Part shown: in pieces, positions 8,848 to 46,828 of the stretch
Layout of the letters: every line of letters begins with the position of its first letter
Numbering within the stretch: the first letter of the stretch is position 1
Assembly: GCA_030041175.1 (NCBI GenBank)
Contig: JASHOK010000006.1
Span: 71,710 to 135,709 of the forward strand
Length of the DNA stretch: 64,000 nucleotides
Direction of reading: 5' to 3'
DNA from: Thermoplasmata archaeon
GTDB taxonomy: Archaea; Thermoplasmatota; Thermoplasmata; Lutacidiplasmatales; UBA184
Notes under the pieces: generated by a model
Database searches by the model: none
What the model was told of the DNA's origin: nothing
What the model saw: only the letters and a program-made list of their open reading frames with translations
Program-made: the position numbers and the translations under genes

Positions 8848-8864
8848 GGGGTCCTACTGCCCCG

Positions 8865-12469: not shown

Positions 12470-12558
12470 AGTGCGCGGTCGAACGATGAGCGACGATCGG
12501 GTCTGCAGTCCGGCCGCCAGTCTTTTGACGAAGCAGCCCGTCGTTCTAGTCCCGGGGG

Positions 12559-14229: not shown

Positions 14230-14252
14230 CCCCCGGCGCGGCGGGGCCCGGC

Positions 14253-29640: not shown

Positions 29641-32600
29641 TCACTGCGACGGCGGCGGACTCGCGGGGGGCTGGCTCTCGTCCCACTCTTTCGGCGGGGG
29701 CGCCGACTTCCATTCCTGCGCCGGCGGCGGTGAGGGCGCGCCGGGTCGGGAGCTCGCTCGGCGAGCGTAGTAGATCATGCCCACCAGGAACACGACGGCG
29801 AGGATGCCCAGGAGCACGACCAGTCCCTCGAAGAGCAGTCCCGGTCCGGAGCTCGTCGTCGGTGTCGACGTGAGGGTGACGTTGAGGTAGCCCGTGCCTT
29901 GGGACGGGACGGAGACGTTGTTGAAGTAGGTCTCGTACCCGGTCGCAGAGACCTCCACGGCGGCGACGCCCGCGGCGACGCTGGCCGTGACCGCACCGTT
30001 CGCGAGCACGACGGGGGTCCCGTCCACCCACGCATGGGCCGCCACGGGGAGGACGGCCAGCTTGAGCGAGCCGGGCAGGAGCGTGAAGGCCACCGACGCC
30101 GTGGCCCCGGAGCTTCCGACCTGTACGGGTTCGGATGCGGGGGACGGCGTGTAGCCCGTCGCAACGAAGGAGGCGGTATAGCTGCCCGCCGCGACGTCGA
30201 ACGTGACCGTCGGGGTGTCGCTCGAGGAGCTCTGGGGGAGGTTGTCCGTGCCGGCACCGGTGATGGTGGCCGTCCACTCTGCGCCGATGCTGAGGCCCGT
30301 CGCCGTGATCGTGAGAGGCACTCCGACCGCAAACGTGACGTCGAAGCTCGTCGGCGCCCCGTCGACCGTGACGGTCGGCGACGCGATGACCACGTATCCA
30401 CTCGGCCCGGACACCGCGACCGCGTACGTTCCATCCGCGAGAGGAATCTCGATCGTGGAGGTCGTCGAGCCCTGCGTCATGCCGGCGACCGACACGCTCC
30501 AGTTGTCCCCCGCCGGGAGACCGCTGGCGCTGAACGTCACCACAAAGGTCACCTCGGGTACGAGCGGGACGTAGTCCCCTCCGGTCAGGATCAGCCCGTT
30601 GTCGGTGAACGGAAGCGGTCCTCCGCTGTAGCTGGTCCAGTAGTTGCCGCCCTGATAGTTCGTGTCCACGATGCTGCCCGTCAGGATGAAGCCGTTGACG
30701 ACCCGCTGGTCGGTGAGAGGCTGCCGGGAAACGTTCCAGGCATCGGCGTAGGGAACGAAGCCACACTCGCCGAACTGCGCGCACAGGAACGGGTCGAACG
30801 GGTCCGTGAGCGCCGAGAGCGGTACCTCGAAGGCGTTGTCGTAGATCAGGTCTCCCGACTCGGACTCGTTAACGCCCGTCACGTTGGCGCCGCTGTCGTC
30901 GATCGAGCCCAGGCTGGTGGTGTCGATCGTTCCCGATACGAAGGTGTTCCCCCAGATCGTGTTGCCGGAACCGCCGTAGAGCAGGATGGCACCGCCCTGG
31001 TCTTCGAACGTGTTCGAGGCGATGAGCACGTTCTCGCAGCCCCACACGAGCACCGCGCTCTCCGGGTACTCCGTCTGGAAGAGGCTCATCCACCCCGAGA
31101 TCCCCGTTCCGTCAACGAGGGAGATGTCGGACGCGTCGTAGAAGTTGATGCCGAGGTCGTTCGAGGTCGGAAGACCCAGGCCGGCCGTGAACCCCGGAAC
31201 GTACGGCGCGGTGAACTCGAACGCCGGGATGTTGATGAGGAACGACGGCGGGGTGACGTCGACGAAGGCGGTCGTGTTCGCCAGGAGCAGTCCGGGGAAG
31301 ACCGGGAAGAGATAATCGTCCCACTGCGCGAACACGGCGTCCAAGGGGCCGACCTGGTTGTTGTCCAAGACGTAGGGGTCCGCCGCCGTTCCGGTGCCGC
31401 TCGAGGAGATCGCCCCGAGCTCACTGTTGTTGAGCGCAAAGAGGGGCGTATAGATCCCCTGCGACCTGTCGAGCGCCAGGTCTTCGGTCAGGGTTCGCGG
31501 GCTCCCGTCGAGCGTTAGGCTCCGGGCCACGGGGTCGTGGTCACTCAGCAGGAAGTCGAGATAGAACGTGCCGTGCGACGGCAGGTAAAACGTGGTCGGC
31601 GAGACCGCCGGGCTCGGGACCCACTGCGCCTGCTTCGTCTTCTCGGTGCCGCCGGGGTTGACGAAGATGAACGAATTGGTCGGGTGCAGATGCACCGTGA
31701 CCGCTACGGCGCCGGAGGCCCCGGAGTAGTTCCAAAGCCCGCCGACGAACGCCGGGCCGCTTCGGACCTCCGCGATGGGGTGAGTGCCGCCACTGGAATA
31801 GACGAGCAGGCCGACGGAGGTCTCGCCGGTCTCCTCCCCGGCGTTGTACGCCGAGGGCACAGTTTCCATCTGATCGGCGGTCTCATTCCAGAACTGAAGG
31901 TTGACGGTGGCGTTCGCCTCGTAGAAGGCGGTCGTGTCGCCGTCGTCGTTGCCCAGGAGGTCGATCTCCATGTCGTTGATGAGGCCGATCGGGTCGTACT
32001 GGTAGCCGTCCGACTGGTACTGCGGAGTAAGGGCGGGCGCCGTCGGCGTCCCGACCGTGGAGTTGAAGATGAGCCAGTCGAACGAGGCGGCCTGGTGGAA
32101 CGTCGCGTTGGTCACGCTGTAGTTGAAGTAGAAGGCCGGCCGGTCGTCGATGACGGTCGTATTCAGGTACATCGTGAGCGAGAACGGGTACCCGACCGTG
32201 ATGGCGGGCCCATACCCCTGGTAGAGGTACGGGAAGTCGGCCGTGGTTCCGTTGGGGCTGAACTCGTACACGCTGTTGGCGGGGAAGTACCCGGAGGCGT
32301 TCGAGAAGTTCCAGACTTCGTCCCCGAAGACCAGTTGCTGCGTGCTCGGCGTGTAGTCGACGTAGTTCTGGCTCCAGTACTGGTACGTGTCATTCCCGAA
32401 GACCGTGACGTTCGCGGCGACCGAGTTGAGCTGGATGCCGTAGGTGTTCGGTCCGTCGCCGTCCACGTAGAGCGACTGCAGGTTCGTGATGTTGACCGTC
32501 CCCGCCACGCTCGTCGTGTTGAGCTCGTAGGGCGTGAGCGTGCCGGAGTCGTTGCGGAGGCCGATGTCGGCCACCCCCATCGGAGCCGGAGCGTCGACGT

Positions 32601-32910
32601 AGCTGGGAGCTACCTGCTGATGGATCTGCGTGACGGCATTGAGGAAGTTGGGGAGGTGGATATGGGTCGGGTCGATCCCTTTCGCCCGGAGGCCCTCTTC
32701 GATGGCTTGGACCTTCTGGACCGCCGCCGGGGTCGTCGATCCGGCGGCGGAAGCGGTCGTCGCTTCCGCGGAGAGGGAGGCGGAGGCGGGAGCGGCGCGC
32801 GGCGAACTGGCCGTTGGAACCGCAACGGTCAAGGCGACCCCCAGGCCGCTCACGGACACCACGACCGCAAGGGCCAGTACGCACGCCGTGCGGCTCGCAG
32901 AGCGCCTCAT
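29641..32910 (-). CDS. Large membrane-anchored surface protein: thermopsin-like (peptidase A5) N-terminal region, beta-helix repeats, Ig/PEGA-like domains, TM anchor, Pro-rich tail
   Basis: The signal peptide reads MRRSASRTACVLALAVVVSVSGLGVAL. PAPMGVADIGL...G...PY...T.S..G..NI..L and many N-x-S/T sequons resemble thermopsin family proteins. CENVLIASNTFEDQGGAILLYGGSGNTIWGNTF is a right-handed beta-helix repeat. The C-terminal anchor reads LLFEGLVVLLGILAVVFLVGMIYYARR. Confidence 0.75.
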   Translation of the reverse strand: MRRSASRTACVLALAVVVSVSGLGVALTVAVPTASSPRAAPASASLSAEATTASAAGSTTPAAVQKVQAIEEGLRAKGIDPTHIHLPNFLNAVTQIHQQVAPSYVDAPAPMGVADIGLRNDSGTLTPYELNTTSVAGTVNITNLQSLYVDGDGPNTYGIQLNSVAANVTVFGNDTYQYWSQNYVDYTPSTQQLVFGDEVWNFSNASGYFPANSVYEFSPNGTTADFPYLYQGYGPAITVGYPFSLTMYLNTTVIDDRPAFYFNYSVTNATFHQAASFDWLIFNSTVGTPTAPALTPQYQSDGYQYDPIGLINDMEIDLLGNDDGDTTAFYEANATVNLQFWNETADQMETVPSAYNAGEETGETSVGLLVYSSGGTHPIAEVRSGPAFVGGLWNYSGASGAVAVTVHLHPTNSFIFVNPGGTEKTKQAQWVPSPAVSPTTFYLPSHGTFYLDFLLSDHDPVARSLTLDGSPRTLTEDLALDRSQGIYTPLFALNNSELGAISSSGTGTAADPYVLDNNQVGPLDAVFAQWDDYLFPVFPGLLLANTTAFVDVTPPSFLINIPAFEFTAPYVPGFTAGLGLPTSNDLGINFYDASDISLVDGTGISGWMSLFQTEYPESAVLVWGCENVLIASNTFEDQGGAILLYGGSGNTIWGNTFVSGTIDTTSLGSIDDSGANVTGVNESESGDLIYDNAFEVPLSALTDPFDPFLCAQFGECGFVPYADAWNVSRQPLTDQRVVNGFILTGSIVDTNYQGGNYWTSYSGGPLPFTDNGLILTGGDYVPLVPEVTFVVTFSASGLPAGDNWSVSVAGMTQGSTTSTIEIPLADGTYAVAVSGPSGYVVIASPTVTVDGAPTSFDVTFAVGVPLTITATGLSIGAEWTATITGAGTDNLPQSSSSDTPTVTFDVAAGSYTASFVATGYTPSPASEPVQVGSSGATASVAFTLLPGSLKLAVLPVAAHAWVDGTPVVLANGAVTASVAAGVAAVEVSATGYETYFNNVSVPSQGTGYLNVTLTSTPTTSSGPGLLFEGLVVLLGILAVVFLVGMIYYARRASSRPGAPSPPPAQEWKSAPPPKEWDESQPPASPPPSQ

Positions 32911-33018: not shown

Positions 33019-33987
33019 CTACGCCTTCGCGGGTGCCCGCAGGGAGCGGGCGTCGCCGGGAGGATTTCCCGGACCCAGGATGCGCGCCGCGAGCGCCTCG
33101 ACCACTTCTTCCGCATCGTTCGGCATCGGGACCCGACGGTATCCGATCCCGTGCGCCTCCGCAAATTCCCGCACTACCACGTCCAGGTCGTACAGCGTCT
33201 CGAGGTGGTCGAAGACGAAGCCGAAGGACGCGATCAGCTGGTTCCGTGCGCCTCGCCGCTGCCATTCCACCATGACGTCATTGATGTCGGGACCCAGCCA
33301 CGGTTCGGTGGTGTTGCCAGGGCTCTGGTACGTGAACGACCAGCGGTCGAGCCGGGCCTCGTGCGCGATCGCCGAGTAGGTGTCCTGAAGGATCTCGGGG
33401 TAAGGGTCGCCCCGGTCTCGCATCTGCTGGGGAAGGCTGTGGGCCGACAGGAGGACGGCCCCATCGGGGTCCGGATGCGCGGCGAGCTCCGCGCGGATCG
33501 CCCGGCTCCAGTACGCGATCCAGTTCGGGTCGAGATGCCAGTCGAGCCGCACGTCCACGGTGATGGGAGTACTCGACGCGCGGATTCCGTCCGCCACACC
33601 CTGCTGGTACGGTTCGCTGATCCAGAGGGAAGCATACGGAGTCAGCGGCACGGCGACGAGGTGCTGGAAGCCCGCATGGGCCGCCTCGGGGATGACGTCC
33701 CGGAGCGCGGGATGGCCGTGCTTGACTCCGAGGAAAACGCGGGTGCCCGGCCAGTCCCGGCCGACCCGACGCTCCAGCTTTTCTCGCACCGACGCCAGCG
33801 TCCGGTTCTGCGGAGAGCCGCCGATGCGCTGGTAGCGCCCGACGTACTCGTTGACCATCTCGGCAGAGGGCCGATGGCCGTGGAGGACATCGGTCAGATA
33901 GGCCGCTAGGTCGTCCGCGCCGTTCGGGCTCCCGTACCCCATCAGGAGTACGGCCGTGGTCTCGGAGGGTCCGTCCGCTGGCGTCAT
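33019..33987 (-). CDS. hemH: Ferrochelatase (coproporphyrin ferrochelatase type likely)
   Basis: The sequence reads VLLMGYGSPNG..DLAAYL..V......P...V.EY..RY..IGG.SP, then LLSAHSLP and FTYQS.G.....WLGPD. Confidence 0.88.
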   Translation of the reverse strand: MTPADGPSETTAVLLMGYGSPNGADDLAAYLTDVLHGHRPSAEMVNEYVGRYQRIGGSPQNRTLASVREKLERRVGRDWPGTRVFLGVKHGHPALRDVIPEAAHAGFQHLVAVPLTPYASLWISEPYQQGVADGIRASSTPITVDVRLDWHLDPNWIAYWSRAIRAELAAHPDPDGAVLLSAHSLPQQMRDRGDPYPEILQDTYSAIAHEARLDRWSFTYQSPGNTTEPWLGPDINDVMVEWQRRGARNQLIASFGFVFDHLETLYDLDVVVREFAEAHGIGYRRVPMPNDAEEVVEALAARILGPGNPPGDARSLRAPAKA

Positions 33988-35033
33988 CGCTTCCTCTGCT
34001 GCCGGCCGGCGGCGTGCACGTAGTCGACGAGCTCGCGCACACGCTCGGGGTCGGTTTCGGGAAGGACGCCGTGCCCTAAATTGAAGACGTGTGCACGGCC
34101 GTCCGGAATCTCGTCCAGGACCCGCTGCGCCTCTTGGCGGACGGCCTCCGGTGAAGCCAGCAGCACTCCGGGGTCCAGGTTCCCCTGCAACGCCAGATCG
34201 GGGCCGACCCGGGACCGTACCCGGCCCAGCGGCTCGCGCCAGTCGACGCCGAGCGCGTCCGCGCCGGTCCGGCGGAGCAGGTCGAGAAGATGCGCCGATC
34301 CCGTGGAGAAGTAGATCGTCGGGCGGTGGAGCGGCCGCAGCGCAGCGAAAATCCGCTGCAGGGCCGGTAGCAGATGCCGCTCGAAGACCGCCGGCGACAC
34401 GGCGCCGACCCAGGTGTCGAACAGCTGGAGCGCGGCGGCGCCGCTGTCGGACTGCATCCGCAGATAGTCGACGGTCATTCGCTCCAGCCGCTCGATCAGC
34501 CGGTCGAACGTGCCGGGGTCGGCGTAGAGTAGGCGTTTCGTCTCGGCGTACTCCCGCGAAGGCCCTCCTTCGATCAGGTAGGAGGCCAGGGTGAAGGGGC
34601 CGCCGGCGAAGCCGATGATCGGCCGCTCGGACTCGCGCTCCAGGAATCGTTCGATGGCGTGGCCGACGAATGGGACGGAGGCCCGGGCGTCGAACTCGGT
34701 GAGCGCCTCGACGTCCGCGCGGGATCGGAGGGGATGAGGGATCACCGGACCCCGGCCGGGGTCGATCGAGAACGGAACACCCAGACCCGCGAACGGAAGG
34801 GAGATGTCCGCAAACACGACGCCCGCATCGACGTCGTACCGCTGGAGCGGTTCGAGGGTCACCTCGGCCGCCATCTCGGGGTCCCGGGCAATCTCCAGGA
34901 TCGGATGGGCGGCTCGCATCGCCCGGTACCGGGGCAGGTGTCGGCCGGCCTGGCGCATCAGCCAGATGGGCGTGGTGTCGGTCTCTTCTCCGCGCAGCGC
35001 GCGGATCAGACGGTCTCGGCGCATCTCAGGCAC
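33984..35033 (-). CDS. hemE: Uroporphyrinogen decarboxylase
   Basis: TPIWLMRQAGRHLPRYRAMR is the UroD N-terminal signature. Further motifs are FDTW and NLGHG. Confidence 0.92.
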   Translation of the reverse strand: MPEMRRDRLIRALRGEETDTTPIWLMRQAGRHLPRYRAMRAAHPILEIARDPEMAAEVTLEPLQRYDVDAGVVFADISLPFAGLGVPFSIDPGRGPVIPHPLRSRADVEALTEFDARASVPFVGHAIERFLERESERPIIGFAGGPFTLASYLIEGGPSREYAETKRLLYADPGTFDRLIERLERMTVDYLRMQSDSGAAALQLFDTWVGAVSPAVFERHLLPALQRIFAALRPLHRPTIYFSTGSAHLLDLLRRTGADALGVDWREPLGRVRSRVGPDLALQGNLDPGVLLASPEAVRQEAQRVLDEIPDGRAHVFNLGHGVLPETDPERVRELVDYVHAAGRQQRKR

Positions 35034-36330
35034 TCCGAGCGGCCCGGAATCCGGCCCGAAGAGCGGATTCGGCGAGCTGGAGGTCCCGGGGACGGATGGC
35101 CGCCGAAAGGAAGGTGGTCTCTAACGCGGACGGCGGGAGGTAGACCCCGCGGTCCAGCACCGCGTGGAAGAATCGCGCGTAGCGGTTCCGGTCCGACCGT
35201 TCCGCATCCTGGCGGTCCCGAATCGGGCCGCCGGCGAAGAAGAGGCCGAGCATCGACCCTGCGCGCGTCAGCGTTACCGGAGCTCCACCGACCTCGTCCG
35301 ACAGGCGGTGGAGGAGCGCTTCGAGCTGGGCGCCGAGGCGCTCCAGGGTCGAGTAGGTGGACGCCGTCAGACGGTCGAGCATCGCCCGGCCGGCCGCCAT
35401 GGCGACCGGGTTCCCCGAGAGGGTGCCGGCCTGGTAGACGGGTCCGAGCGGTGCGACAACCTCCATCACGTCTCGCCGCCCGCCGTAGGCGCCCACCGGC
35501 ATCCCGCCACCGATGACCTTGCCCAGCGTCACGAGGTCGGCGTGCAGGCCCAGGGATTCGTGAACGGTTCCCCGACGCAGCCGGAAACCGGTGATCACCT
35601 CATCCGCGATGACCAAGGCGCCGTGGTCGTGAGCGAGCCGGGAAACGGCCGATAGGAATCCGGGTTGGGGAAGTACGACCCCCATGTTCCCGGCCACCGG
35701 CTCCACGACGACGGCCGCCACCGCCGATCCCTGCCGTTCGAACAGATCGGCGAGGCTGTCGGGGTCGTTGTACCGGCTCACCAGCGTCTCGCCCACGACG
35801 GCCGACGGCACGCCGGCCGAGTCCGGCAGAGAAGCCGTGGCCACGCCGGAGCCCGCCCGGGCCAGCAGACCATCGGAGTGCCCGTGGTAGCCCCCGTCGA
35901 ACTTCACCACCTTCGAGCGGCCGGTGAAGCCGCGAGCCGCTCGAACCGCACTCATCACCGCCTCGGTGCCGGAGCTCACGAAGCGCAACCGTTCGGCTAC
36001 CGGAACGGCACGGCGAATCTCTTCCGCCAGTTCGTGTTCGAGCGGCGATGGGGCGCCGAACGTGAGTCCGCGCACGGCGGCGGCTCGGACGGCGGCCACG
36101 ACGCCCGGGGGCGCGTTCCCGAGGATGTTGGCGCCCCACGAACTCACCAGGTCGAGATAGCGTCGGCCATCCACGTCGATGAGATACGCGCCGGTCCCCC
36201 GGGCGAAGAAGACCGGGGAACCACCGACCGATCGGAAGGCCCGGACCGGACTGTCCACCCCCCCGACCAGCACCCGGGCGGCCCGTCGGCCCAGTGCACG
36301 GGAACGGCGGCCGGGCGCCGCAGGGCTCAC
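35026..36330 (-). CDS. hemL: Glutamate-1-semialdehyde 2,1-aminomutase
   Basis: The sequence reads GGVDSPVRAF..VGG.P.F..RG.GAYL.DVDG..YLD.V.SWG, then FVSSGTEA, then ALVIADEVITGFR and VTLGKVIGGG (PLP lysine). Confidence 0.93.
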   Translation of the reverse strand: MSPAAPGRRSRALGRRAARVLVGGVDSPVRAFRSVGGSPVFFARGTGAYLIDVDGRRYLDLVSSWGANILGNAPPGVVAAVRAAAVRGLTFGAPSPLEHELAEEIRRAVPVAERLRFVSSGTEAVMSAVRAARGFTGRSKVVKFDGGYHGHSDGLLARAGSGVATASLPDSAGVPSAVVGETLVSRYNDPDSLADLFERQGSAVAAVVVEPVAGNMGVVLPQPGFLSAVSRLAHDHGALVIADEVITGFRLRRGTVHESLGLHADLVTLGKVIGGGMPVGAYGGRRDVMEVVAPLGPVYQAGTLSGNPVAMAAGRAMLDRLTASTYSTLERLGAQLEALLHRLSDEVGGAPVTLTRAGSMLGLFFAGGPIRDRQDAERSDRNRYARFFHAVLDRGVYLPPSALETTFLSAAIRPRDLQLAESALRAGFRAARSA

Positions 36331-37067
36331 AGGAGCCCTTCCGCCAGGTCGATCATGCGCCGGGCCGGGGTGAGGACGCAGGTGAAGATTGGAGTCTCGA
36401 GTGCGGTGTACCGGCTGGCTTCGGTCGGCCGGAGGTCGTTCACGAGGTCGAGAAACTCGGCCGGGGACTCGGACTCGAACGACAGGATGAACTCCGCGTC
36501 ATCGATTCCGAACGAATACCCGGTGTGGATCCGAACCCGCGGATACTTGTGACCGATCCGGAAGTGCTCCCCCATGATCCGTCGCCGCTCCTCGAACGGA
36601 AGCGCGTACCATTCCCGCTTCTTCACGAACGGATACACGAAGAGATAGGGCATATCGAAGGGGCGTCGCTGGACGTCCGACCCCTCCCCGCCATGGGCGT
36701 GCTCGCCGAGATACTCCGAACGGCGGGCCATCCCGAGGTAGGAGTACGGTGTGTCCAGGTAGCCCCCGAGCGGCGTGCCAAAGAGCCGGGAGTGGAACTC
36801 CTGGAGCGGCCCCAACTCCGAGCCGACGCTCCAGACCAGCATTTCCGCCGCGGCCTTGAGCCCCATGAGCGAGTACGTACGGGCGAGGACTCCGTCCGGC
36901 GGGTGGTCGAGCACCCGAACGAGCTCCTGCTTGCCGTCCTCGCGCTCCCCGCGCGGAAGGCGTCGCCACTCCGGCCGAAGGTGAAAGAAGGCGTACCGGA
37001 CGAAGTCGCGGGGGCCCTCGACCTCCTCGGCCGGCGGGGAGCCGGAGGTCGACGCGGGGCCGGTCAC
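36327..37067 (-). CDS. hemQ: Chlorite-dismutase-family protein, coproheme decarboxylase-like (HemQ/ChdC)
   Basis: 246 aa: YAFFHLRPEWRRLP..ER..GKQEL....., ..YSLMGLKAAAEMLVW.., PYLFVYPFVKKREWY.LPFEERRRIM.EH. and SFGIDD.EF.L.FE. It sits inside the heme operon. Confidence 0.8.
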   Translation of the reverse strand: MTGPASTSGSPPAEEVEGPRDFVRYAFFHLRPEWRRLPRGEREDGKQELVRVLDHPPDGVLARTYSLMGLKAAAEMLVWSVGSELGPLQEFHSRLFGTPLGGYLDTPYSYLGMARRSEYLGEHAHGGEGSDVQRRPFDMPYLFVYPFVKKREWYALPFEERRRIMGEHFRIGHKYPRVRIHTGYSFGIDDAEFILSFESESPAEFLDLVNDLRPTEASRYTALETPIFTCVLTPARRMIDLAEGLL

Positions 37068-38083
37068 GGCCCACCCCGAGACCAGTGCGCCACGTCTCGG
37101 GCGAAGTAGGTCACGATGAGGTCGGCTCCGGCCCGTCGGATCGCCGTCAGGGTTTCTTCCACGGCGGCCCGTTCGTCGACGACCCCCGCCGCTGCGGCCG
37201 CCCGCAGCATGGCGTACTCGCCACTCACCTGATACGCCGCGAGTGGTAACAGGAATCGCTGACGGGCCCGGGCCAAGAGGTCCAGGCTCGTCAACGCCGG
37301 CTTGACCATGAGGACATCGGCGCCCTCGGCGACGTCCTGCTCCATTTCCCGGAGCGCCTCTCGGGCGTTCCGGAAGTCCATCTGATATCCCCGACGGTCG
37401 CCGAACTCCGGCGTGGACTGCTCCGCCTCCCGGAACGGACCGTAGAACGACGAGGCGTGTTTGGAGGTGTAGGCCAGAACGCCGGCATCCTCGTGGCCGG
37501 CGCCGTCCAGCGCCGCGCGGATCGCCGCGACCTGTCCGTCCATCATGGCGCTCGGGGCCACCACGTCGGCGCCGGCCTCAGCATGCGCCACCGCTACCCG
37601 GGCGAGACGCTCGCAGGTCGCATCGTTCACCACGGTGCCGTGAGCGACGACACCGCAGTGTCCGTGCGTGGTGTAGGCGCAGAGGCAGACATCCGTGGAG
37701 ATGACCATCTCGGGAGCAGCCCGACGGATCGCCCGAACCGCCTCCGGAACGACTCCGTCCGCCGCCCAGGCATCGCGGCCCTCCGGGTCTTTGCGGCGTC
37801 CTACTCCAAAGAGCAGTACCGAGTGGATGCCCTCGGACGAGAGTTCCCGGGCTAATGCCGAGACCCCACGGACGGAGTACCGGAACACGCCCGGAAAGGA
37901 CGGGATCGGTTCCGGCCTTCCGGTTCCGGGGCGAACGAAGACCGGATAGATGAGCCGCCGCAGCTCGACGGTCGTTTCCGCCACCCACTCCCGCAGGGAG
38001 GGAGAGCGTCGGAGACGCCGGAGCCGGACCCGGGGCACGGTATCACGGCCGACGGCACGAGCGGACCGTCTACGGACTGGCAT
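37064..38083 (-). CDS. hemB: Porphobilinogen synthase (delta-aminolevulinate dehydratase)
   Basis: The sequence reads RLRRLR.SP.LREWV.ET.....LIYP.FV, then ..DVCLC.YT.HGHCG.. and ..APSAMMDG... The active-site Lys context is VLMVKPA and Y.VSGEYAM. Start at the ATG at 38083 (14-nt overlap with the hemD end). The 437-aa track ORF is an upstream extension. Confidence 0.9.
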   Translation of the reverse strand: MPVRRRSARAVGRDTVPRVRLRRLRRSPSLREWVAETTVELRRLIYPVFVRPGTGRPEPIPSFPGVFRYSVRGVSALARELSSEGIHSVLLFGVGRRKDPEGRDAWAADGVVPEAVRAIRRAAPEMVISTDVCLCAYTTHGHCGVVAHGTVVNDATCERLARVAVAHAEAGADVVAPSAMMDGQVAAIRAALDGAGHEDAGVLAYTSKHASSFYGPFREAEQSTPEFGDRRGYQMDFRNAREALREMEQDVAEGADVLMVKPALTSLDLLARARQRFLLPLAAYQVSGEYAMLRAAAAAGVVDERAAVEETLTAIRRAGADLIVTYFARDVAHWSRGGP

Positions 38084-38840
38084 GACGGAGCTCCTGCAAG
38101 AGGCGCTGGGTAAATCGCTGTGCGGTGGTCGGGGCAGCGACGGAGGTCCGCCGGAATCCGAGGTCGGCCGCCGCCCGACGTGAGCGAGACCCCAGCACCA
38201 CGAGCCGGGCGGTGCGGGCCAGCCGGCGGAAGGCAGCGCGACCGAGCTGTCGTCGGGCCTGCACCAGTCCGGACGGGCTTGTAATGACCAGCAGGTCGGC
38301 CCGGGCCAGTCGTTCTTTTTCGCGCGCCGTCCAGCTTCGGCCGGCCCGGAGTCGGTAGACCACGCGTTCGGTAACACGGTGGCCTCGGCGCCGGAGCTTC
38401 CGGGCGAGCTCGACGCCGGCCCGATCCGAGCGGAGGTAGAGAATCCTGCGTCGCGATCTTGCCCCGAGGGCGGAGACCACTGCCACGGAGCCGAGCCCGG
38501 CAGGTCGCCGAACTCGGCGAACGCCGGCCGTCCTCAGCGCGTCCACCGTGCCCGGACCGGCTGCCCAGAATTCGGTGTCCACCAGGGAGGATGGAATGGC
38601 CCGGCTCCAGGGGACTACGCCTGCGGTAACTCCAGCGCGGCTGGTGACCACGACGGTGTCCGGTGGGGCCCTCCGCAGGCTGGGCCCCAGCCAAACCCGG
38701 GGCGAGACCGGTTGGGCCTCGACCGACCGAAGCCGTACGACGTTAACGCCGGCTCGCCGGAGGCGGGCGTCAATTCCGGTCAGGGTTCCCCGGGCCGAGA
38801 CCAGCGCGATCAACGGTCGCGGGGTCCGCTGCGCTCGCAT
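38070..38840 (-). CDS. hemD: Uroporphyrinogen-III synthase
   Basis: 256 aa. It sits between hemC and hemB. It is weakly conserved but shows the two-lobed repeat layout (..LVITSPSGL.., ..VVVTSRAGV..) typical of HemD. Confidence 0.7.
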   Translation of the reverse strand: MRAQRTPRPLIALVSARGTLTGIDARLRRAGVNVVRLRSVEAQPVSPRVWLGPSLRRAPPDTVVVTSRAGVTAGVVPWSRAIPSSLVDTEFWAAGPGTVDALRTAGVRRVRRPAGLGSVAVVSALGARSRRRILYLRSDRAGVELARKLRRRGHRVTERVVYRLRAGRSWTAREKERLARADLLVITSPSGLVQARRQLGRAAFRRLARTARLVVLGSRSRRAAADLGFRRTSVAAPTTAQRFTQRLLQELRHASP

Positions 38841-38843
38841 GCG

Positions 38844-39749
38844 TCACCGAGTCGCGGAGAGCAGCTCATTCGCGCCGGCCTCCAGGAAGTCGCGTCCGAG
38901 CTCCTGACCCAGCGAGTGCGCGGACGCCGCGGGCCCTCTCCGGGACTTCCGGAGCCGGAGCCGTCCGTCCGGCGCTAGCACCTCTCCGACCAGCCCAAGC
39001 GTTCGGCCCCGGGCGACGGCCAGGGCCCCCAGGGGCAGGTTGCAATCCCCACCGAGCTCGGCAGCGAACGCCCGTTCGGCCGTGACTGACGCATGAGTTG
39101 GCGGGTCGTCCAGAGCGCGGGCCAGTGCCGCTACGGGGCCGTCACCCGTTCGTGCGACGACCGCCAGCGCGCCCTGCGCCGGAGCGGGGAGAAAGTCGCG
39201 GAGAGGGAGCCGTCGGCCGATCTCGCTCTCCCGCGCGAGCCGGAGGAGTCCTGCAACGGCGAGGATCGCGGCGTTGACAGCGCCCGAGCGAACCACGCCG
39301 ATCCGGGTGTCCACGTTGCCTCGAATCTCCACGACGTTGAGGTCGGGTCGCCACCGGAGCAGCTGGGCCCGTCGCCGAAGACTGCTCGACCCCACCCGTG
39401 CGCCCGCGGGCAGCGAGCCGACGCGGTGGGGACGACTCGTTACGAGACAGTCGCGGGGATCGGCGCGCACCGGGCAAGCGACAAGGTCGATGCCCGGGTC
39501 CAGCTCGAGGGGAAGATCCTTGGCACTGTGGACCGCCAGATCGATCTCCCCCCGAAGCAACGCGCGGTCGAGCGCGTCGGTAAAATCGGGGGAGCCTCCC
39601 GGGGTCCGGTCCGTATCGCCACTCGCATCGATCGGGACCGCTTCCAACTGGACCCGGGGGTTCCGCCGGTGAAGCCGTGCCAGTACCGAGTCCGTCTGGG
39701 CCCGGGCGAGCGCACTCCTCCGGGTGCCGACCCGGAGTCTATCGGTCAC
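38844..39749 (-). CDS. hemC: Hydroxymethylbilane synthase (porphobilinogen deaminase)
   Basis: Motifs present: LRVGTRRSALARAQT, ..GEIDLAVHSAKDLP.., RGNVDTR, ..PAPAQGALAV.. and the cofactor Cys context GGDCNLPLGA. Confidence 0.92.
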   Translation of the reverse strand: MTDRLRVGTRRSALARAQTDSVLARLHRRNPRVQLEAVPIDASGDTDRTPGGSPDFTDALDRALLRGEIDLAVHSAKDLPLELDPGIDLVACPVRADPRDCLVTSRPHRVGSLPAGARVGSSSLRRRAQLLRWRPDLNVVEIRGNVDTRIGVVRSGAVNAAILAVAGLLRLARESEIGRRLPLRDFLPAPAQGALAVVARTGDGPVAALARALDDPPTHASVTAERAFAAELGGDCNLPLGALAVARGRTLGLVGEVLAPDGRLRLRKSRRGPAASAHSLGQELGRDFLEAGANELLSATR

Positions 39750-41170
39750 GGCTCCGACGGGGCCGGGCGGAGAAGCTCCACCGCCAGCCGTCGCTCGAGG
39801 TCGCCGGCGGGTCCTGCCGGCAGAGAGCGGATTCGCTCCGTGGAGGGAGCGAGCAGCTGAGCCACTAATCTTCGGGTGAGCCGGTCGATGGCGGCCTCCT
39901 GATCCGCATCAAGGGGGCCCAAGAACTTTCGCGCCCGCTCGACCTCGGCCCGCCGGGTCGCCTCCGCGGTGCGATACAACGCATCGATCCAGGGCTCCAG
40001 CAGGAGCCGCTCGATTCGACCCGAGAACCGGTCCGCGAGCTCCTGTACCCGGGCATCCGGCCGCGAGGGGGCCCGAGGGTCTCGGGACCAGGCATGGAGT
40101 TCCTCCAGATCGACGAGCCGGATGCCCGGTCGTTGACGGACGGCGGGATCGATGTTGCGAGGCATGCCTAGATCCACCAAGATCATCGGCCGATCGGGCG
40201 GAAGATCCGCGGCGCGGATTCCGTGGTGGCCGAACTTGGCCGCGGTCACGATCGCGTCCGCGTTCGCCGCTAGGCTCCCCAACCGATCCATGGGCGCCGC
40301 ATCGACGCCGATGTTCCGAAGGAACTCATCGCTCGGAGGCCGGGTGTGGTACACGAGAGTGGCCCGAATATCAGGAGAAAGGCAGCGGGCGACCTGCCGG
40401 CCGACCGTCCCCGACCCCACAACCAGCACCCGCGCCGACGGCGCTGCCAGGAGTGTTCGAAGGTAGGTCACCGCCATCGACGCGATCGACTGCGGGGGAG
40501 CCTCCCCGGAGGCCAGTTCCTGGGCCGTGGATGCGGCTCCCTGCAACACCTCCCGAAGTACGGGCCGCGGATGCCGGCTGAGAACCCGGAAACCGGCGGC
40601 TCGTACCTGCTGGCTGACCTCGAGTTCTCCCCGAGCGAGAGACTCCCGACCGGTCGCGACCCGGAAGAGGTGCCGGACGAGTTCTCGACCGTCGCGGAGC
40701 CGCCAGACACTCTGGGGGCCCGGCAGATCCGCGAGCCAGCGGTCGACACCGGCGGGGTCGCGCAAGAGCAGGACGAGTTCGACCCGGTGGCAGGTGGTTA
40801 GGAGCCCAACCTCCTCGGTGCCGGAGTGGCGCTCAAAGAGCGGGGGGAGTACCTCCAGAGGGAACGACCGAACGATGGATTCTAGCTGGTCCAGCGTGGC
40901 CGTGTCGAAGCTGCACTCGAGTCCGACGAGCGATAGCGGCTGGGTCGGACCCTCGCGTTCGGCCGAGCCGTCCGGCCGGGGGAGGACAAGGCGGTACGCG
41001 GAGAGACGGTTCGCGGGGGTAGATGACACACTCAACCCAGGGCCACGGTTCGAACCGCGGCCGACCTTTATGAGTCGAGGTACGAACCCGGAGCCGGTCC
41101 AGTCCTCCGCCGGAGAAGGTCTCTTCGGCCCCGCGGGGTCGTGGGGTGACTCGGGCCCGGAACGGCTCAA
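39746..41170 (-). CDS. hemA: Glutamyl-tRNA reductase (start uncertain)
   Basis: The sequence reads LLTTCHRVELVLL (catalytic Cys), then ..FRVATGRESL..GE.EV..QVR.., with the NADPH site VLVVGSGTVGRQVA. Alternative in-frame starts are TTG at 41035 and GTG at 41029. The ATG at 41170 adds a Pro/Gly-rich leader of about 45 aa. Confidence 0.85.
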   Translation of the reverse strand: MSRSGPESPHDPAGPKRPSPAEDWTGSGFVPRLIKVGRGSNRGPGLSVSSTPANRLSAYRLVLPRPDGSAEREGPTQPLSLVGLECSFDTATLDQLESIVRSFPLEVLPPLFERHSGTEEVGLLTTCHRVELVLLLRDPAGVDRWLADLPGPQSVWRLRDGRELVRHLFRVATGRESLARGELEVSQQVRAAGFRVLSRHPRPVLREVLQGAASTAQELASGEAPPQSIASMAVTYLRTLLAAPSARVLVVGSGTVGRQVARCLSPDIRATLVYHTRPPSDEFLRNIGVDAAPMDRLGSLAANADAIVTAAKFGHHGIRAADLPPDRPMILVDLGMPRNIDPAVRQRPGIRLVDLEELHAWSRDPRAPSRPDARVQELADRFSGRIERLLLEPWIDALYRTAEATRRAEVERARKFLGPLDADQEAAIDRLTRRLVAQLLAPSTERIRSLPAGPAGDLERRLAVELLRPAPSEP

Positions 41171-41239
41171 GGCCCCCGTCGTCGCCCGAGGGCCGCGAAG
41201 CGTTCATTAGACGGCCCCCGGTCCCGGTCGTCGAGGGGC

Positions 41240-43891
41240 GTGTCGATGCAACCGGTCGTTCCCTTGCTCAGCGACCTCGCCCCCGACGGATTCGATTTCT
41301 CGGGCCAATACATGGTCGAATTCGATGCGGATTCCTTGTGGTACGAAACGTCCCTGACGATCGCCGCACGGGCGCTCGAGGGAGGATTCAAGACCGAATA
41401 CCACGTCTTCGAACATTTTCCGCGCGAGGCCCGTCAGGCGCTCACCCGCCTCGGCGTCGACGCGGCCCGGCTGGAGGCCGACGGCCTCCTGAACATCTGG
41501 GATAGCTACACCGAAACCACCGAGTTCGAGAAGGCGCGGACCACGGGACCCGGCTGGGAAATGGCGGGTCCAAAACCCCTGGACATCGTCCAGGGCGCGG
41601 CCCGGTGGGTAGAACGCACCAAGAAGGGGTTCGATCCGAGGGAAATGCGGTGGCTGCACCTCGACGACAACACGGGCATCTTTCTCCAGTACAACGACGA
41701 GCAGACCGTAGTGGATCGCTGGCGGACGGCGCTCCTTCCGGCCATACGAGCCCGGGAGTGTCCCCACTTTCTCGCCTTTCCCAAGGGCATCGCCTCGGAG
41801 GCGTTCTACACGAAGTTCGAGGCGCTCTGCGATGGAATCATTGACCTGAAGACGGAGGAGGTCGAGGGTCAGGTCGAGCGATTCCTGCGGATCCGACGGT
41901 TGAAGGGTCGGGTCGCCGATTCGCACTGGCATCGACTGGAAATGCAGGCCGACGGAGCGGTCCGACTCGGCCACCCCCCGTCGCTCGGTCCTGCCCGGCG
42001 GCTCGCGGCTATCATGTTCACCGACATGGTGGGGAGCACCCGCGCGGCGCAGGAAGACGAGGCGAGCGCGCTGGAGCTGATCCGGGCCCAGGAAGAGCTG
42101 CTACGGCCCCGATTCTCGGCGCATCAGGGCCGGGTGATCAAGTCGCTGGGAGACGGGTTTCTCGTCGTGTTCGATAGCGCGCTGCGCGCGGTCCAATGCG
42201 CCGTAGACATCCAGCAGGCGATTCGAAGCCGGAATGCCGGCAGCGGGACTCGGCCGATCCAACTCCGGATCGGGGTGCACCTCGGTGACATCGAGGAACG
42301 CGGAAGTGACGTCTTCGGAGATTCGGTCAACATTGCCGCCCGGATCGAACCGTTGGCCGATCCCGAGGGGATTTGCATCACGGAACCCGTGTTCGGACAG
42401 GTCCAGAACAAGATCACGAACCGTTTCGAGAAGCTGGAGCCTCAGACGCTGAAGGATGTACGGTTTCCGGTCGACGTGTACCGGATGCGCATGTCCTGGG
42501 ACCCGGGACCGGCCCTCGCGGCGACCTGGGACCCCCGCCGGGTCGCTGTCATGCCGCTGGTCAACATGATCCCCGACCCCAGTGAGGCGTACTTCGCGGA
42601 TGGCATGACCGAGGAGATCATCTCCGCGATTTCCAAGGTCCGGGACCTTGCCGTTATCTCGAGAACGTCGGTAACACAGTACAAGAACACCACGAAGAAG
42701 GTTGCCGAAATTGCCCGGGACCTGAACGTGGGCACCCTGTTGGAGGGTAGCGTCCGCAAGGCGGGAAACCGGGTCCGGATCGCGGTCCAACTGATCGACG
42801 CCAATAGCGACAAGCACCTGTGGTCCGAGAACTACGACCGTACGCTCGATGACGTGTTCTCCATCCAGAGCGAGATCGCTCAAGGCGTGGCCTCCCGTCT
42901 GCAGGTCACCCTGCTGGACAGTGACCGAAAGCGGCTCGAAAGGGCACCGACGAGGGACCCGGAAGCCCACGCCTTTTTCCTCAAGGGGCGAGCGGCGCAC
43001 GGGCCCGTGAACGCGATCGAGTTCTACCGGAAGGCCGTCGAGAAGGACCCGCGGTATGCGCTGGCCCACGCGTGGCTGGCGATTGCAACTCTCAACCGAG
43101 GGTTCTCGGACATCGTCCCGGCGCTCGACGCCGCCCGGGAGGCGGAGTCGAGCCTCCAGCAGGCGTTGGTCCTGGATCCGGCCCTGCCAGAAGCGCACGC
43201 GGCGCGGGCCTTCGCGCTGTACCTCCGATGGGACTTCGAAGGCGCCCAGACGGAAGCAAACCGAGCGCTCGAGCTGGACCCGAACTCCCACGAGGCCCTC
43301 GCCTATGGCGCGTTCCTGTTGCGGCTCCCGCGACGATTCGAGGAATCAGAGAAGCTGGTCCGGAGGGCGTTGGAGCTGGACCCCCTGTCGCCGGCAACAC
43401 TCCGCGACGCCGGGACGGATCTACTCTACCTGGGTCGGCCGGAGGAGGCCGCCGCTCTCTTCAAGACGGTCCTCGAGATCGAACCCGAGGAAGCGACCGC
43501 GCGCGGTAACCTCGGACTCGCCTGCGTGCAGCAGGGGCTCTTGGACCAAGGGGTCGCGATGATTCGCGACGGGATCCGGATGTCCGGAGGGATCGAGGTG
43601 GCGACGGCCTGCGACCTGTCCTACGCCCTGCGGAAAGCCGACCGGCTCGGCGAGTTGCGCGAGTTTCTCACCGAGGTTCTCGCGTGGTACACGCAGAGGG
43701 GGTACGGCGCCACTGCGCTCGTCGCCGTCTACGCGAACCTCGGGGAGCTCGACCCGGCGTTCGAGTGGTTCGGACGCGCGTTGGACGAGCATTCCGCCTA
43801 CCTGCCCACCGCCGTCTTCGATTTCGCTTTCGAGAATCTGTGGCCCGACCCTCGGTTTGAGTCCCTCAAGGAACGTCTGGGCCTCCGGTGA
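41240..43891 (+). CDS. Multidomain signalling protein: N-terminal RecA/KaiC-like domain lacking a P-loop, class III adenylate/guanylate cyclase domain, TolB-N-like domain, TPR repeats
   Basis: The cyclase core reads RRLAAIMFTDMVGSTRAAQ..GRVIKSLGDGFLVVF......V.CA..IQ......IQLRIGVHLGDIE..G.DVFGDSVNIAARIE. The next domain reads RVAVMPLVNMIPDPSEAYFADGMTEEIISAISKVRDLAVISRTS..., then LLEGSVRKAGNRVRIAVQLIDA. The C-terminal third has TPR-type A..A...A/L..P repeats. The call for the N-terminal 250 aa is a low-confidence inference. Confidence 0.85.
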   Translation: MSMQPVVPLLSDLAPDGFDFSGQYMVEFDADSLWYETSLTIAARALEGGFKTEYHVFEHFPREARQALTRLGVDAARLEADGLLNIWDSYTETTEFEKARTTGPGWEMAGPKPLDIVQGAARWVERTKKGFDPREMRWLHLDDNTGIFLQYNDEQTVVDRWRTALLPAIRARECPHFLAFPKGIASEAFYTKFEALCDGIIDLKTEEVEGQVERFLRIRRLKGRVADSHWHRLEMQADGAVRLGHPPSLGPARRLAAIMFTDMVGSTRAAQEDEASALELIRAQEELLRPRFSAHQGRVIKSLGDGFLVVFDSALRAVQCAVDIQQAIRSRNAGSGTRPIQLRIGVHLGDIEERGSDVFGDSVNIAARIEPLADPEGICITEPVFGQVQNKITNRFEKLEPQTLKDVRFPVDVYRMRMSWDPGPALAATWDPRRVAVMPLVNMIPDPSEAYFADGMTEEIISAISKVRDLAVISRTSVTQYKNTTKKVAEIARDLNVGTLLEGSVRKAGNRVRIAVQLIDANSDKHLWSENYDRTLDDVFSIQSEIAQGVASRLQVTLLDSDRKRLERAPTRDPEAHAFFLKGRAAHGPVNAIEFYRKAVEKDPRYALAHAWLAIATLNRGFSDIVPALDAAREAESSLQQALVLDPALPEAHAARAFALYLRWDFEGAQTEANRALELDPNSHEALAYGAFLLRLPRRFEESEKLVRRALELDPLSPATLRDAGTDLLYLGRPEEAAALFKTVLEIEPEEATARGNLGLACVQQGLLDQGVAMIRDGIRMSGGIEVATACDLSYALRKADRLGELREFLTEVLAWYTQRGYGATALVAVYANLGELDPAFEWFGRALDEHSAYLPTAVFDFAFENLWPDPRFESLKERLGLR

Positions 43892-44899: not shown

Positions 44900-46828
44900 G
44901 TGCCGACGACCCGACGGCTGGCGGCCATCATGTTCACCGACATGGTGGGGTACACTGCGGCCGCCCAGGTCGACGAAAGGGCCACGCTAGCGCTACGCAA
45001 CGAGCAGGAGGCTATCGTCCGTCCGATGCTCACCAAGCATCAAGGCCGGGTGGTCAAGTCCACCGGCGACGGGCTCCTCGTCGAGTTCGACAGTTCTCTC
45101 AAAGCGACCGAGTGCGCGATCAGCATCCAGCGGAAGCTTCACGAACGCAGCGAGAGGACCACTGCTACCCCTATCAACCTACGGATCGGCATTCACCTAG
45201 GGGATGTAGAACAGCAAGGGGCTGACATTTTCGGTGACGCGGTAAACATCGCCTCTCGAATTCAGCCGGTGGCGGAGCCGGGCGGAATCTGCGTCTCGAA
45301 CGCTGTCCATGAGCAGGTCTGGAACAAGATCTCCGACAAGCTCGAAGAGCTCCCTCCGACGGCACTCAAGGGACTACGGGTTCAGATGGACCTCTACCGG
45401 GTCATCTTGCCGTGGACCGATGAGGCATCCCGATCCGCGACCCCCGGTCCAACCGGAATCGCGGTCCTCCCCTTCACCAACATTAGCCCGGACCCGAAGG
45501 ACGAGTACTTTGCGGACGGACTTACTGAGGAGCTGATCTCCGTACTCTCCCGGCTGCGGGACCTTCGGATTATCGCGCGAACGTCGATAACACCCTACAA
45601 ATCGACCTCGAAGGGTGTCTCCCAGATCGGAGCGGAGCTGGGCGTCTCGTCCATTTTGGAGGGGAGCGTGCGGAAATCCGGGAGCCGTTTGCGGATCACG
45701 GTCCAACTAATCGACGTCGGTTCCCAGGGGCATGTCTGGGCGCACACATACGACCGGGAGCTCGACGACATCTTCGCGGTCCAAACCGACATCGCCATGC
45801 AAGTAATGGATGCCCTAAAGCTCGAATTGGCAGGAATTGAGAGGACCCGCCTTCACGCTAGACGTCCGGCGCGGAAGGACTCCTACCTGGCCTACTTGAA
45901 AGGGCGAACTCTGGCTCACGACAGATCCGAAGCGGGCCTGAAGGCGGCGAAGGAACAGTTCGAAATTGCGATCCGCCTAGACCCCGAAAACGCGTCGGCC
46001 TATTCGGGGCTCTCCGATACACTTTACCATCTGGTGACCTACGGCTACACGGGCCCGAATCGGGCCGAGGACATCGCCCTCGGCCGCACCTACGCCGCCC
46101 GGGCGGTCGAACTAGACGCGGACCTCGCGGAAGCCCATGCGTCCCTCGGGAGTGTCTATTGGTACGATTTCCGACACGCTGACGCAGAAAGGGAGTTCTT
46201 GCTTGCGCTATCGCTCAACCCGAGCTATCCCCAGGCCCACACGTGGTACGCACTCCTACTGGAAGAGCTCGGACGACCTGAGGAGGCTCTTCAGGAATTC
46301 GCGCTGGCCGAGCAGGCGGATCCGCTCTCACTGCCTCTCCTCGTGTCGACCGCCCAGCTGCTCAGATGGCTCGGTCGGCTAGACGAAGCTCAAACGAGGA
46401 TCGAAAAGCTCTGGAATGCGAAGACGACACTTTGGGCGGGCCGGACGCAGATGTTCGAGTACTACATGGCCCGATCCGACCCCGAGCGAGCACTGAAGGT
46501 GCTGGATCAGACTAAGGAGGCCAGGCCGGGAGATCCGCGATTGCTGGCCAGTTACGCGGACTACTACGCGCGGACCGGGCAAACGAATCGAGCGATCGAA
46601 CTGCTTCGGGAGTTCGAGACGCAGACCGAAGGCCTCCCGTACCGAGAAGTGACCCTAGCGGACGTGTACACATCTCTAGGTAAGCTCGATGAGGTCTTCC
46701 GCTGGCTCGAAAAGGCGCTCGAGGCCCACTGGCTCGATGTCCGGAACTGGCGACTAAATCCGAACGCCGCCCGCGTGCGGGCTGACCCGAGATTCCAAGC
46801 CCTCCTGAAAAGGATGAAGCTCGCCTGA
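44900..46828 (+). CDS. Class III adenylate/guanylate cyclase, TolB-N-like domain, TPR protein (paralog of 41240..43891 without the N-terminal domain)
   Basis: The sequence reads RRLAAIMFTDMVGYTAAAQ..GRVVKSTGDGLLVEF......ECA..IQ.....INLRIGIHLGDVE..G.DIFGDAVNIASRIQ, then IAVLPFTNISPDPKDEYFADGLTEELISVLSRLRDLRIIARTS, then LEGSVRKSGSRLRITVQLIDV, followed by TPR repeats. GTG start. Confidence 0.88.
   Translation: MPTTRRLAAIMFTDMVGYTAAAQVDERATLALRNEQEAIVRPMLTKHQGRVVKSTGDGLLVEFDSSLKATECAISIQRKLHERSERTTATPINLRIGIHLGDVEQQGADIFGDAVNIASRIQPVAEPGGICVSNAVHEQVWNKISDKLEELPPTALKGLRVQMDLYRVILPWTDEASRSATPGPTGIAVLPFTNISPDPKDEYFADGLTEELISVLSRLRDLRIIARTSITPYKSTSKGVSQIGAELGVSSILEGSVRKSGSRLRITVQLIDVGSQGHVWAHTYDRELDDIFAVQTDIAMQVMDALKLELAGIERTRLHARRPARKDSYLAYLKGRTLAHDRSEAGLKAAKEQFEIAIRLDPENASAYSGLSDTLYHLVTYGYTGPNRAEDIALGRTYAARAVELDADLAEAHASLGSVYWYDFRHADAEREFLLALSLNPSYPQAHTWYALLLEELGRPEEALQEFALAEQADPLSLPLLVSTAQLLRWLGRLDEAQTRIEKLWNAKTTLWAGRTQMFEYYMARSDPERALKVLDQTKEARPGDPRLLASYADYYARTGQTNRAIELLREFETQTEGLPYREVTLADVYTSLGKLDEVFRWLEKALEAHWLDVRNWRLNPNAARVRADPRFQALLKRMKLA

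Follow-up and report, generated by a model that had tools for sequence, protein, structure and literature searches.

Among archaea, the combination of the late heme biosynthesis genes hemE and hemH was described in 2010 by Storbeck et al., who detected it in just three out of a set of 59 archaeal genomes, those of Picrophilus torridus, Thermoplasma acidophilum and T. volcanium (PMC3004389). These three organisms possess no hemF/N, hemG/Y or ahb genes, and their route to heme was called "currently unclear" (Storbeck et al. 2010, PMC3004389). The coproheme decarboxylase (ChdC, also HemQ) of T. acidophilum, known from the structure 3DTZ, is treated as such an enzyme in reviews (PMC7611857). In this study, a stretch of 64 kb from a Thermoplasmata archaeon (positions 71710-135709 of contig C14 of the metagenome-assembled genome (MAG) G000; hereafter the window) was analysed. 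It carries a heme biosynthesis operon of eight genes on the minus strand at window positions 33019-41170. This locus is predicted from its genes to be a working single operon for the synthesis of heme b from glutamyl-tRNA by the coproporphyrin-dependent (CPD) route, and it comes without an oxidase for coproporphyrinogen III.

In the CPD route of bacteria, this oxidase is not always the same protein. CgoN (YtpQ, DUF1444) of Priestia megaterium is a coproporphyrinogen III oxidase that does not depend on oxygen, and about 98% of its known members belong to the Bacillaceae (PMC10965808). For archaea, a survey of 2,978 genomes published in 2024 listed the coproporphyrin route as "complete" only in some Halobacteria and in one genome of the Hydrothermarchaeota (PMC11459464); operons like the one described here were scored as incomplete. 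A review from 2026 states that the known enzymes of heme synthesis cover every organism that makes heme (PMC13564367).

Organization of the heme operon

Eight consecutive and co-directional open reading frames (ORFs) were identified at 33019-41170 and named by means of Pfam and NCBIfam profiles; their order is hemA-hemC-hemD-hemB-chdC-hemL-hemE-hemH. For hemC, hemB, hemL, hemE and hemH, an NCBIfam model scored above its curated cut-off. The glutamyl-tRNA reductase gene hemA (39746-41170) encodes 474 amino acids if read from TTG 41170 and matches PF05201, PF01488 and PF00745. It is followed by the genes of hydroxymethylbilane synthase (hemC, 38844-39749, 301 amino acids; TIGR00212, 270.6 bits, cut-off 164), uroporphyrinogen-III synthase (hemD, 38070-38840, 256 amino acids; PF02602, E=1.4e-25) and porphobilinogen synthase (hemB, 37064-38083, 339 amino acids from ATG 38083; NF006762, 449 bits, cut-off 297). 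The second half comprises chdC (hemQ, 36327-37067, 246 amino acids; PF06778 (Chlor_dismutase), 180 bits), hemL for glutamate-1-semialdehyde 2,1-aminomutase (35026-36330, 434 amino acids; NF000818, 556 bits, cut-off 398) and hemE for uroporphyrinogen decarboxylase (UroD; 33984-35033, 349 amino acids; TIGR01464, 376 bits, cut-off 303). The last gene is hemH, encoding a putative ferrochelatase of the coproporphyrin type (CpfC; 33019-33987, 322 amino acids; TIGR00109, 167 bits, cut-off 125).

Neighbouring genes overlap by 4 nt (hemA/hemC, hemB/chdC, chdC/hemL and hemE/hemH), by 8 nt (hemL/hemE) or by 14 nt (hemD/hemB), and a gap of 3 nt separates hemC from hemD. The 14-nt overlap is conditional on the start of hemB at ATG 38083; the ORF is open up to 38377, and the ALAD domain starts at residue 117 of this longer version. 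These six overlaps and the single 3-nt gap argue for the coupling of all eight genes as one operon. A co-directional operon of eight genes had also been proposed in the original prediction, and this part stands, while the five overlaps listed there have to be extended to six by a further one of 4 nt.

The ratios of nonsynonymous to synonymous substitution rates (dN/dS) of the eight genes ranged from 0.09 to 0.28 in comparison to the congener G066 (dS 0.6-1.2) and from 0.12 to 0.32 in comparison to G057; all of them are under purifying selection. HemA is a divergent member of its family, as it reached only 98 bits with TIGR01035 and remained under the cut-off. The start of hemA at TTG 41170 is doubtful because alignments with homologues from beyond the genus begin only at about residue 62-78; the gene probably starts at TTG 41035 or GTG 41029. 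An ATAAAG box, read from the sequence at 41066-41071 (minus strand), lies about 33 nt upstream of the in-frame TTG 41035. It might be an archaeal TATA element, which would give a hemA transcript with a short leader ahead of this codon.

Ferrochelatase and coproheme decarboxylase

Among proteins of solved structure, HemH scored highest against the CpfC enzymes from Listeria monocytogenes, Bacillus subtilis and B. anthracis (166-170 bits), in comparison to about 65 bits for the human protoporphyrin ferrochelatase (PpfC). In the enzyme of L. monocytogenes (LmCpfC), coproheme is held by Tyr12 as the proximal ligand, Tyr124 at propionate 2, Tyr46 and Ser53 at propionate 4 and Arg45 at propionate 6, and the catalytic pair is formed by His182 and Glu263 (PMC7340540). 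Tyr18, Arg51, Tyr52 and Ser58 of HemH align to Tyr12, Arg45, Tyr46 and Ser53 of LmCpfC, and Tyr127, His183 and Glu263 align to Tyr124, His182 and Glu263; these positions are kept in 54-59 of the 59 family members. Only Arg29, a ligand of propionate 7, is replaced (Leu35 in HemH), and propionate 7 is common to both substrates. With the proximal Tyr and the partners of propionates 2 and 4, HemH is predicted to be a ferrochelatase of the coproporphyrin type.

ChdC aligned best to coproheme decarboxylases of the actinobacterial type. All 79 family sequences share Tyr145, Lys149 and the proximal His168 without exception, and Tyr145 and His168 correspond to the catalytic Tyr and the proximal His in the enzyme of Corynebacterium diphtheriae. 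The distal His123, a typical feature of the actinobacterial type, occurs in 72 of the 79 sequences. At the position of the distal Arg of chlorite dismutases (Cld), which was placed by its spacing from the proximal His and not by an alignment with Cld, the family holds His or Asn. The best NCBIfam model, NF042928 (HemQ_actino), yielded 126.5 bits and remained below the equivalog cut-off of 235 bits. ChdC represents a divergent archaeal branch outside the actinobacterial HemQ equivalog.

The original prediction had taken the presence of UroD, ferrochelatase and HemQ as the mark of the CPD route. This assignment is borne out by a hemE above its cut-off, by the coproporphyrin-type residues of HemH and by the catalytic Tyr and Lys and the proximal His of ChdC, which are all in place.

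Search for a coproporphyrinogen oxidase

The MAG has a size of 1.79 Mb in 98 contigs, a G+C content of 68%, a completeness of 89% and a contamination of less than 1%. When this whole genome was searched with the HemY/CgoX profile TIGR00562, only four matches to an N-terminal flavin adenine dinucleotide (FAD) fold with a Rossmann motif were obtained (at most 19 bits), and these were confined to contigs C12, C3 and C89. No HemY-type gene was found with this profile inside the window, in agreement with the original prediction, which had seen no oxidase in the operon or in the window. A tblastn search of the host genome with two bona fide HemY proteins of Thermoplasmata yielded nothing at 1e-4.

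CgoN (DUF1444), HemG (Flavodoxin_5) and HemJ (PF03653) gave no match in the host genome; controls were positive in each of the searches for HemY/CgoX and CgoN, with B. subtilis as the control for CgoN. Small membrane ORFs beside the cytochrome oxidase genes were considered for a HemJ-like role and rejected, as they showed no likeness to HemJ when judged by eye. The C-terminal domain of HemN, HemW and HemZ (HemN_C) was not detected above the cut-off, so that among the oxidases and the decarboxylase of the protoporphyrin route HemN, HemG, HemJ and HemY are missing from the host, while HemF (PF01218) was not searched for.

The siroheme-dependent Ahb route was not detected either. AhbA/B (PF17805) had no match in the host genome, while the controls from Haloferax, Sulfolobus and Methanosarcina were all positive. 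An orthologue of the AhbD-like family TIGR04053 was not found, as tblastn with the protein of a related locus yielded only a 29% match to a radical-SAM core; the AhbC model was not run. A full ahb set together with a ChdC-like protein devoid of catalytic residues, the constellation that the original prediction had named as speaking against it, was not encountered: no AhbA/B was found and the residues are present.

Taken together, it can be stated with high confidence that the eight enzymes are correctly identified and intact, that HemH and ChdC are of the coproporphyrin type, and that HemY/CgoX, CgoN, HemG, HemJ and the Ahb route are truly absent from this organism.

Distribution in related archaea

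The closest ChdC loci were all derived from Thermoplasmata, out of MAG sets from soil and peat. Together with a thermopsin gene adjoining the operon, this confirms that the host is an archaeon, as had been assumed. Locus L014 of the isolate AcS1-67 belongs to the same 21-row subclade of the ChdC tree as the sequence from the window, and AcS1-67 is listed among the genomes of Lutacidiplasmatales (Sheridan et al. 2022, PMC9287336). On the basis of this shared subclade, the host is probably a member of the Lutacidiplasmatales. For this order, complex IV and heme A/O synthases were described by Sheridan et al. 2022 (PMC9287336), where ferrochelatase and porphyrin synthesis are never mentioned. COX1 was detected in the host genome (C95:3761-5122) adjoining genes for cytochrome b and for CtaA-like and CtaB-like proteins, and in 73 of the 75 genomes of the family; heme is therefore needed and oxygen is used. 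The host is an aerobic soil member of the Thermoplasmata.

A sample of 81 genomes of the host's order was compared, 75 of which belong to the same family. ChdC is encoded in 46 of the 81 genomes. A ferrochelatase of the type found in the window (52-100% identity) occurs in 32 of them, all of which also carry ChdC, and in 31 of these 32, most of them more than 90% complete, HemY was not found. The lack of all known porphyrinogen oxidases belongs to the lineage as such and is no artefact of the assembly. Also in the four congeners of the host, two of which are assembled in 5 contigs, no full HemY was detected.

A second type of ferrochelatase, with 31-40% identity to HemH of the window, occurs in 17 of the 81 genomes; in the two examples that were read (L032, L048), Leu or Val replaces the proximal Tyr. 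HemY scored above the cut-off in 10 of the 81 genomes, and in all 10 it is located at a distance of at most 115 nt from a second-type ferrochelatase (loci L092-L101, e.g. G017:C2:3187-5507). The only genome with both HemY and the window-type ferrochelatase, G071, carries its HemY within such a separate pair. In four genomes of one genus the pair is present without ChdC, and hemE lies beside it in both loci where this could be seen. The pair looks like a separately inherited module of two genes.

HemY is thus strictly paired with the second type of ferrochelatase, which shows that the operon type of the window has long worked without it. As HemY adjoins only the second type within the order, the operon is therefore either self-sufficient or dependent on an undiscovered enzyme. 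The old Thermoplasma puzzle is thereby sharpened into a testable statement.

The order hemA-C-D-B-chdC-L-E-H was found in about 45 loci of Thermoplasmata and also in Nitrososphaerota, at 25-57% protein identity. Loci of the Bathyarchaeia exhibit a shorter form, in which hemA or hemL is often not in place. In three loci of Nitrososphaerota, HemY is encoded divergently and immediately upstream of the same operon, so that the complete pathway is also represented in archaea. In the ChdC tree, 49 sequences of the Thermoplasmata clade formed one clade with an SH-aLRT (Shimodaira-Hasegawa-like approximate likelihood ratio test) value of 100. The other side of the tree comprised the remaining archaeal phyla and three bacterial sequences, with no named outgroup from Firmicutes or Actinobacteria. 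On the basis of this monophyly, the operon has a long history of vertical inheritance within the lineage.

Locus L070 of an archaeon with low G+C content differs in two details (at 8321-9284 and 12558-13493). An insert of 1 kb between chdC and hemL encodes a winged-helix-like protein of 86 amino acids, and a gene for a 311-amino-acid protein, AsnC/AhbA-like as judged by eye, is located downstream of hemE.

Other genomes of the family seem to solve the supply of heme differently. In G018 (C11:5403-8907) and G040 (C25:7979-11447), which belong to another genus, AhbA/B-like genes are located about 2 kb from chdC, and neither genome contains a ferrochelatase. These two are most likely hybrids of a siroheme route and ChdC inside the Thermoplasmata, similar to Haloferax. 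A further 26 genomes of the family, including the nearly closed congeners G050 and G060 (5 contigs each), possess COX1 and no ChdC, ferrochelatase, HemY or AhbA/B; these organisms either scavenge heme or use an unrecognised route. A weak ChdC-like match in G050 was dismissed, as no heme genes surround it.

Proposed pathway and alternative explanations

In the proposed pathway, HemA and HemL would provide 5-aminolevulinate, from which HemB, HemC and HemD would form uroporphyrinogen III and HemE would form coproporphyrinogen III. The latter would have to be oxidized to coproporphyrin III by the removal of six electrons. HemH would then insert iron to yield coproheme, and ChdC, with Tyr145 as the putative radical site, would remove two carboxyl groups with peroxide to yield heme b, which would be supplied to the respiratory chain with its heme-copper oxidase.

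The original prediction had placed the missing oxidase elsewhere in the genome or had assumed a non-orthologous enzyme. An orthologue encoded elsewhere is disfavoured by the searches of the whole genome and by the 31 of 32 relatives without HemY, so that the second option stands and has to be supplemented by a step without any enzyme. Our leading, still tentative explanation, to which we assign somewhat less than an even chance, is that coproporphyrinogen III is oxidized by an enzyme outside the four known families whose gene does not adjoin the operon. With the same reserve, the Thermoplasmata, and probably the Nitrososphaerota and Bathyarchaeia sharing the operon, might use a CgoX-independent route with a fifth kind of porphyrinogen oxidase. 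This activity might be encoded away from the operon, or it might reside in the lineage-specific CpfC or ChdC themselves. If true, the existence of a fifth oxidase would contradict the statement of the 2026 review (PMC13564367).

Several observations weigh against such an enzyme. A scan of all ORFs of the host for a HemJ-style motif (His...WxGG) yielded nothing. Clustering of the ORFs from 80 related loci (about 3.6-21 kb) revealed no additional gene and no oxidase kept beside the operon. A family of CrtO/CrtI-like FAD oxidoreductases was considered as a general substitute and rejected, as it occurs in only 12 of the 81 genomes of the order and does not track ChdC. No candidate oxidase emerged from any search made, and the patchy occurrence of HemY among close aerobic relatives fits a step without an enzyme equally well.

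The recurrent neighbours in the 80 loci were genes for ABC transporters, TetR and EamA proteins, seryl-tRNA synthetase and similar proteins; in 12 loci from Thermoplasmata, Nitrososphaerota and Bathyarchaeia (L048, L032, L052-54, L061, L063-66, L075 and L079) a TIGR04053 gene was present. In L048, this radical SAM/SPASM gene (13072-14280) overlaps hemE by 4 nt. TIGR04053 was rejected as the missing oxidase, since an AhbD-like protein is expected to take the place of ChdC without oxygen rather than to act as an oxidase, and since it is not present in the host genome. It is likely that the gene encodes an oxygen-free coproheme decarboxylase which is kept alongside ChdC.

The CrtO/CrtI-like proteins are the only members of the HemY superfamily in the host. 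The six paralogues (C12:9335-10909, C12:20889-22442, C12:22509-24056, C15:2723-4267, C35:6-1421 and C87:2339-3775) scored 294-321 bits with NF045689, far under the cut-off, and each genome of the genus carries 5-8 members of the family. Several of the paralogues adjoin paralogues of class-III aminotransferases.

It is possible, though we consider it the less probable course of events, that the same operon and route operate with no dedicated oxidase at all. Coproporphyrinogen would then be autoxidized adventitiously by O2, or with peroxidase-like help from heme-loaded ChdC or other hemoproteins, and adventitious oxidation might be sufficient for a slow-growing cell with a small demand for heme. 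The aerobic life of the host family and the fact that the searches yielded no candidate enzyme are consistent with this explanation. The same is true for the dispensability of HemY in evolution, as 31 of the 32 genomes with the window-type ferrochelatase lack it, and so do 7 of the 17 with the second type. The known CgoX enzymes are slow (about 0.5-1.3 per min), and autoxidation in air was measurable in the assays of CgoN (PMC10965808). HemQ was also reported to raise coproporphyrinogen's non-enzymatic oxidation slightly, with a turnover of CgoX below 2 per minute (PMC5095920). However, an uncontrolled formation of porphyrins is phototoxic and wasteful, and some Nitrososphaerota keep HemY beside the same operon, which suggests that the step is worth catalysing.

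The remaining explanations are unlikely even when taken together. It is quite improbable that the operon is an accessory which the cell can do without or is losing, and that heme is mainly scavenged from soil. The 26 COX1-bearing family genomes without these heme genes would fit this view, but the eight ORFs are intact, their dN/dS ratios are low (0.09-0.28), the catalytic residues are invariant, and the gene order is kept across three archaeal phyla. Very improbable is a HemY/CgoX gene hidden in the approximately 11% of the MAG that were not assembled or binned; although a completeness of 89% and 98 contigs leave room for such a loss, no full HemY exists in the four congeners, among them those with 5 contigs, or in 31 of the 32 genomes with the same CpfC.

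A function of HemE and HemH in the protoporphyrin route, with unrecognised oxidases for coproporphyrinogen and protoporphyrinogen and with ChdC employed otherwise, was the default interpretation of hemE and hemH in Thermoplasma before 2015. For the host it is highly improbable: HemH is clearly CpfC-like, with Tyr in place of the Met of PpfC and with the ligands of propionates 2 and 4, ChdC lies inside the operon with its catalytic residues, and no HemN-family protein, HemG or HemJ was found. Hardly tenable is a ChdC that ends a siroheme-derived Ahb route with hemE and hemH as bystanders; PitA in Haloferax (PMC5746218) and the AhbA/B genes next to chdC in the ferrochelatase-free G018 and G040 are precedents, but the host lacks a match to AhbA/B and an AhbD-like radical SAM orthologue (the AhbC model was not run), and translational coupling ties its hemE and hemH to the other genes of the operon.

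Neighbouring genes

Directly downstream of the operon, a thermopsin gene (29641-32910, minus strand) encodes a protein of 1089 amino acids with a thermopsin peptidase domain at the N-terminus and a long extension at the C-terminus. The spacer between hemH and this gene comprises 108 nt and contains an AT-rich box of its own. The protein shares 79% identity with the copy of a congener.

An ORF of 255 amino acids upstream of hemA (41207-41974) is probably spurious, as it matched no Pfam family and lacks homologues, also in the nearest relative. It is followed on the plus strand by two neighbouring genes (41990-43891 and 44900-46828) for proteins with an adenylate/guanylate cyclase catalytic domain and a long TPR array. 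The first 250 codons of the former are not conserved, the closest relative included.

Comparison with known systems

With abundant aerobic soil archaea, a group is at hand that possesses a coproporphyrin operon which is complete and under selection, and for which no way to coproporphyrin is known. The lineage is a clean counter-example to the full enzyme coverage claimed in the 2026 review (PMC13564367). The gap as such is not new, since it has been known in Thermoplasma and Picrophilus since 2010 (PMC3004389), and the operon is common in the lineage. The original prediction had named a documented norm of this kind as an argument against itself; this argument holds in part, which lowers its novelty and leaves its correctness untouched. 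What is added here are the count across the lineage, the linkage of HemY to the second ferrochelatase and the support at the level of single residues.

With the CPD route of Firmicutes and Actinobacteria (UroD-CgoX-CpfC-ChdC; B. subtilis, L. monocytogenes, S. aureus, C. diphtheriae), the host has UroD, CpfC and ChdC in common. In contrast to these bacteria, it is an archaeon with all eight genes, including those for the C5 and uroporphyrinogen steps, in one operon, and neither CgoX nor CgoN was found in its genome. It also mixes a firmicute-like CpfC with an actinobacterial-like ChdC bearing a distal His. CgoN, although not found in the host genome, sets the precedent for a non-homologous replacement of CgoX within the CPD route.

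Haloferax volcanii possesses two alternative endings, PitA (ChdC) and AhbD, on an Ahb route, in which coproheme is derived from siroheme without uroD, cgoX and cpfC (PMC5746218). The host, on the contrary, has uroD and cpfC, and no AhbA/B was found.

With Thermoplasma and Picrophilus, the host shares the class Thermoplasmata, the set of late genes and the missing oxidase. The ChdC proteins are only distantly related, as TA0507 of T. acidophilum (PDB 3DTZ) yielded 53 bits over a partial match. Unlike these organisms, the host belongs to a different, soil-dwelling order, and its genes are arranged in one tight operon of eight genes. It is a solid further example of the gap in another, abundant order.

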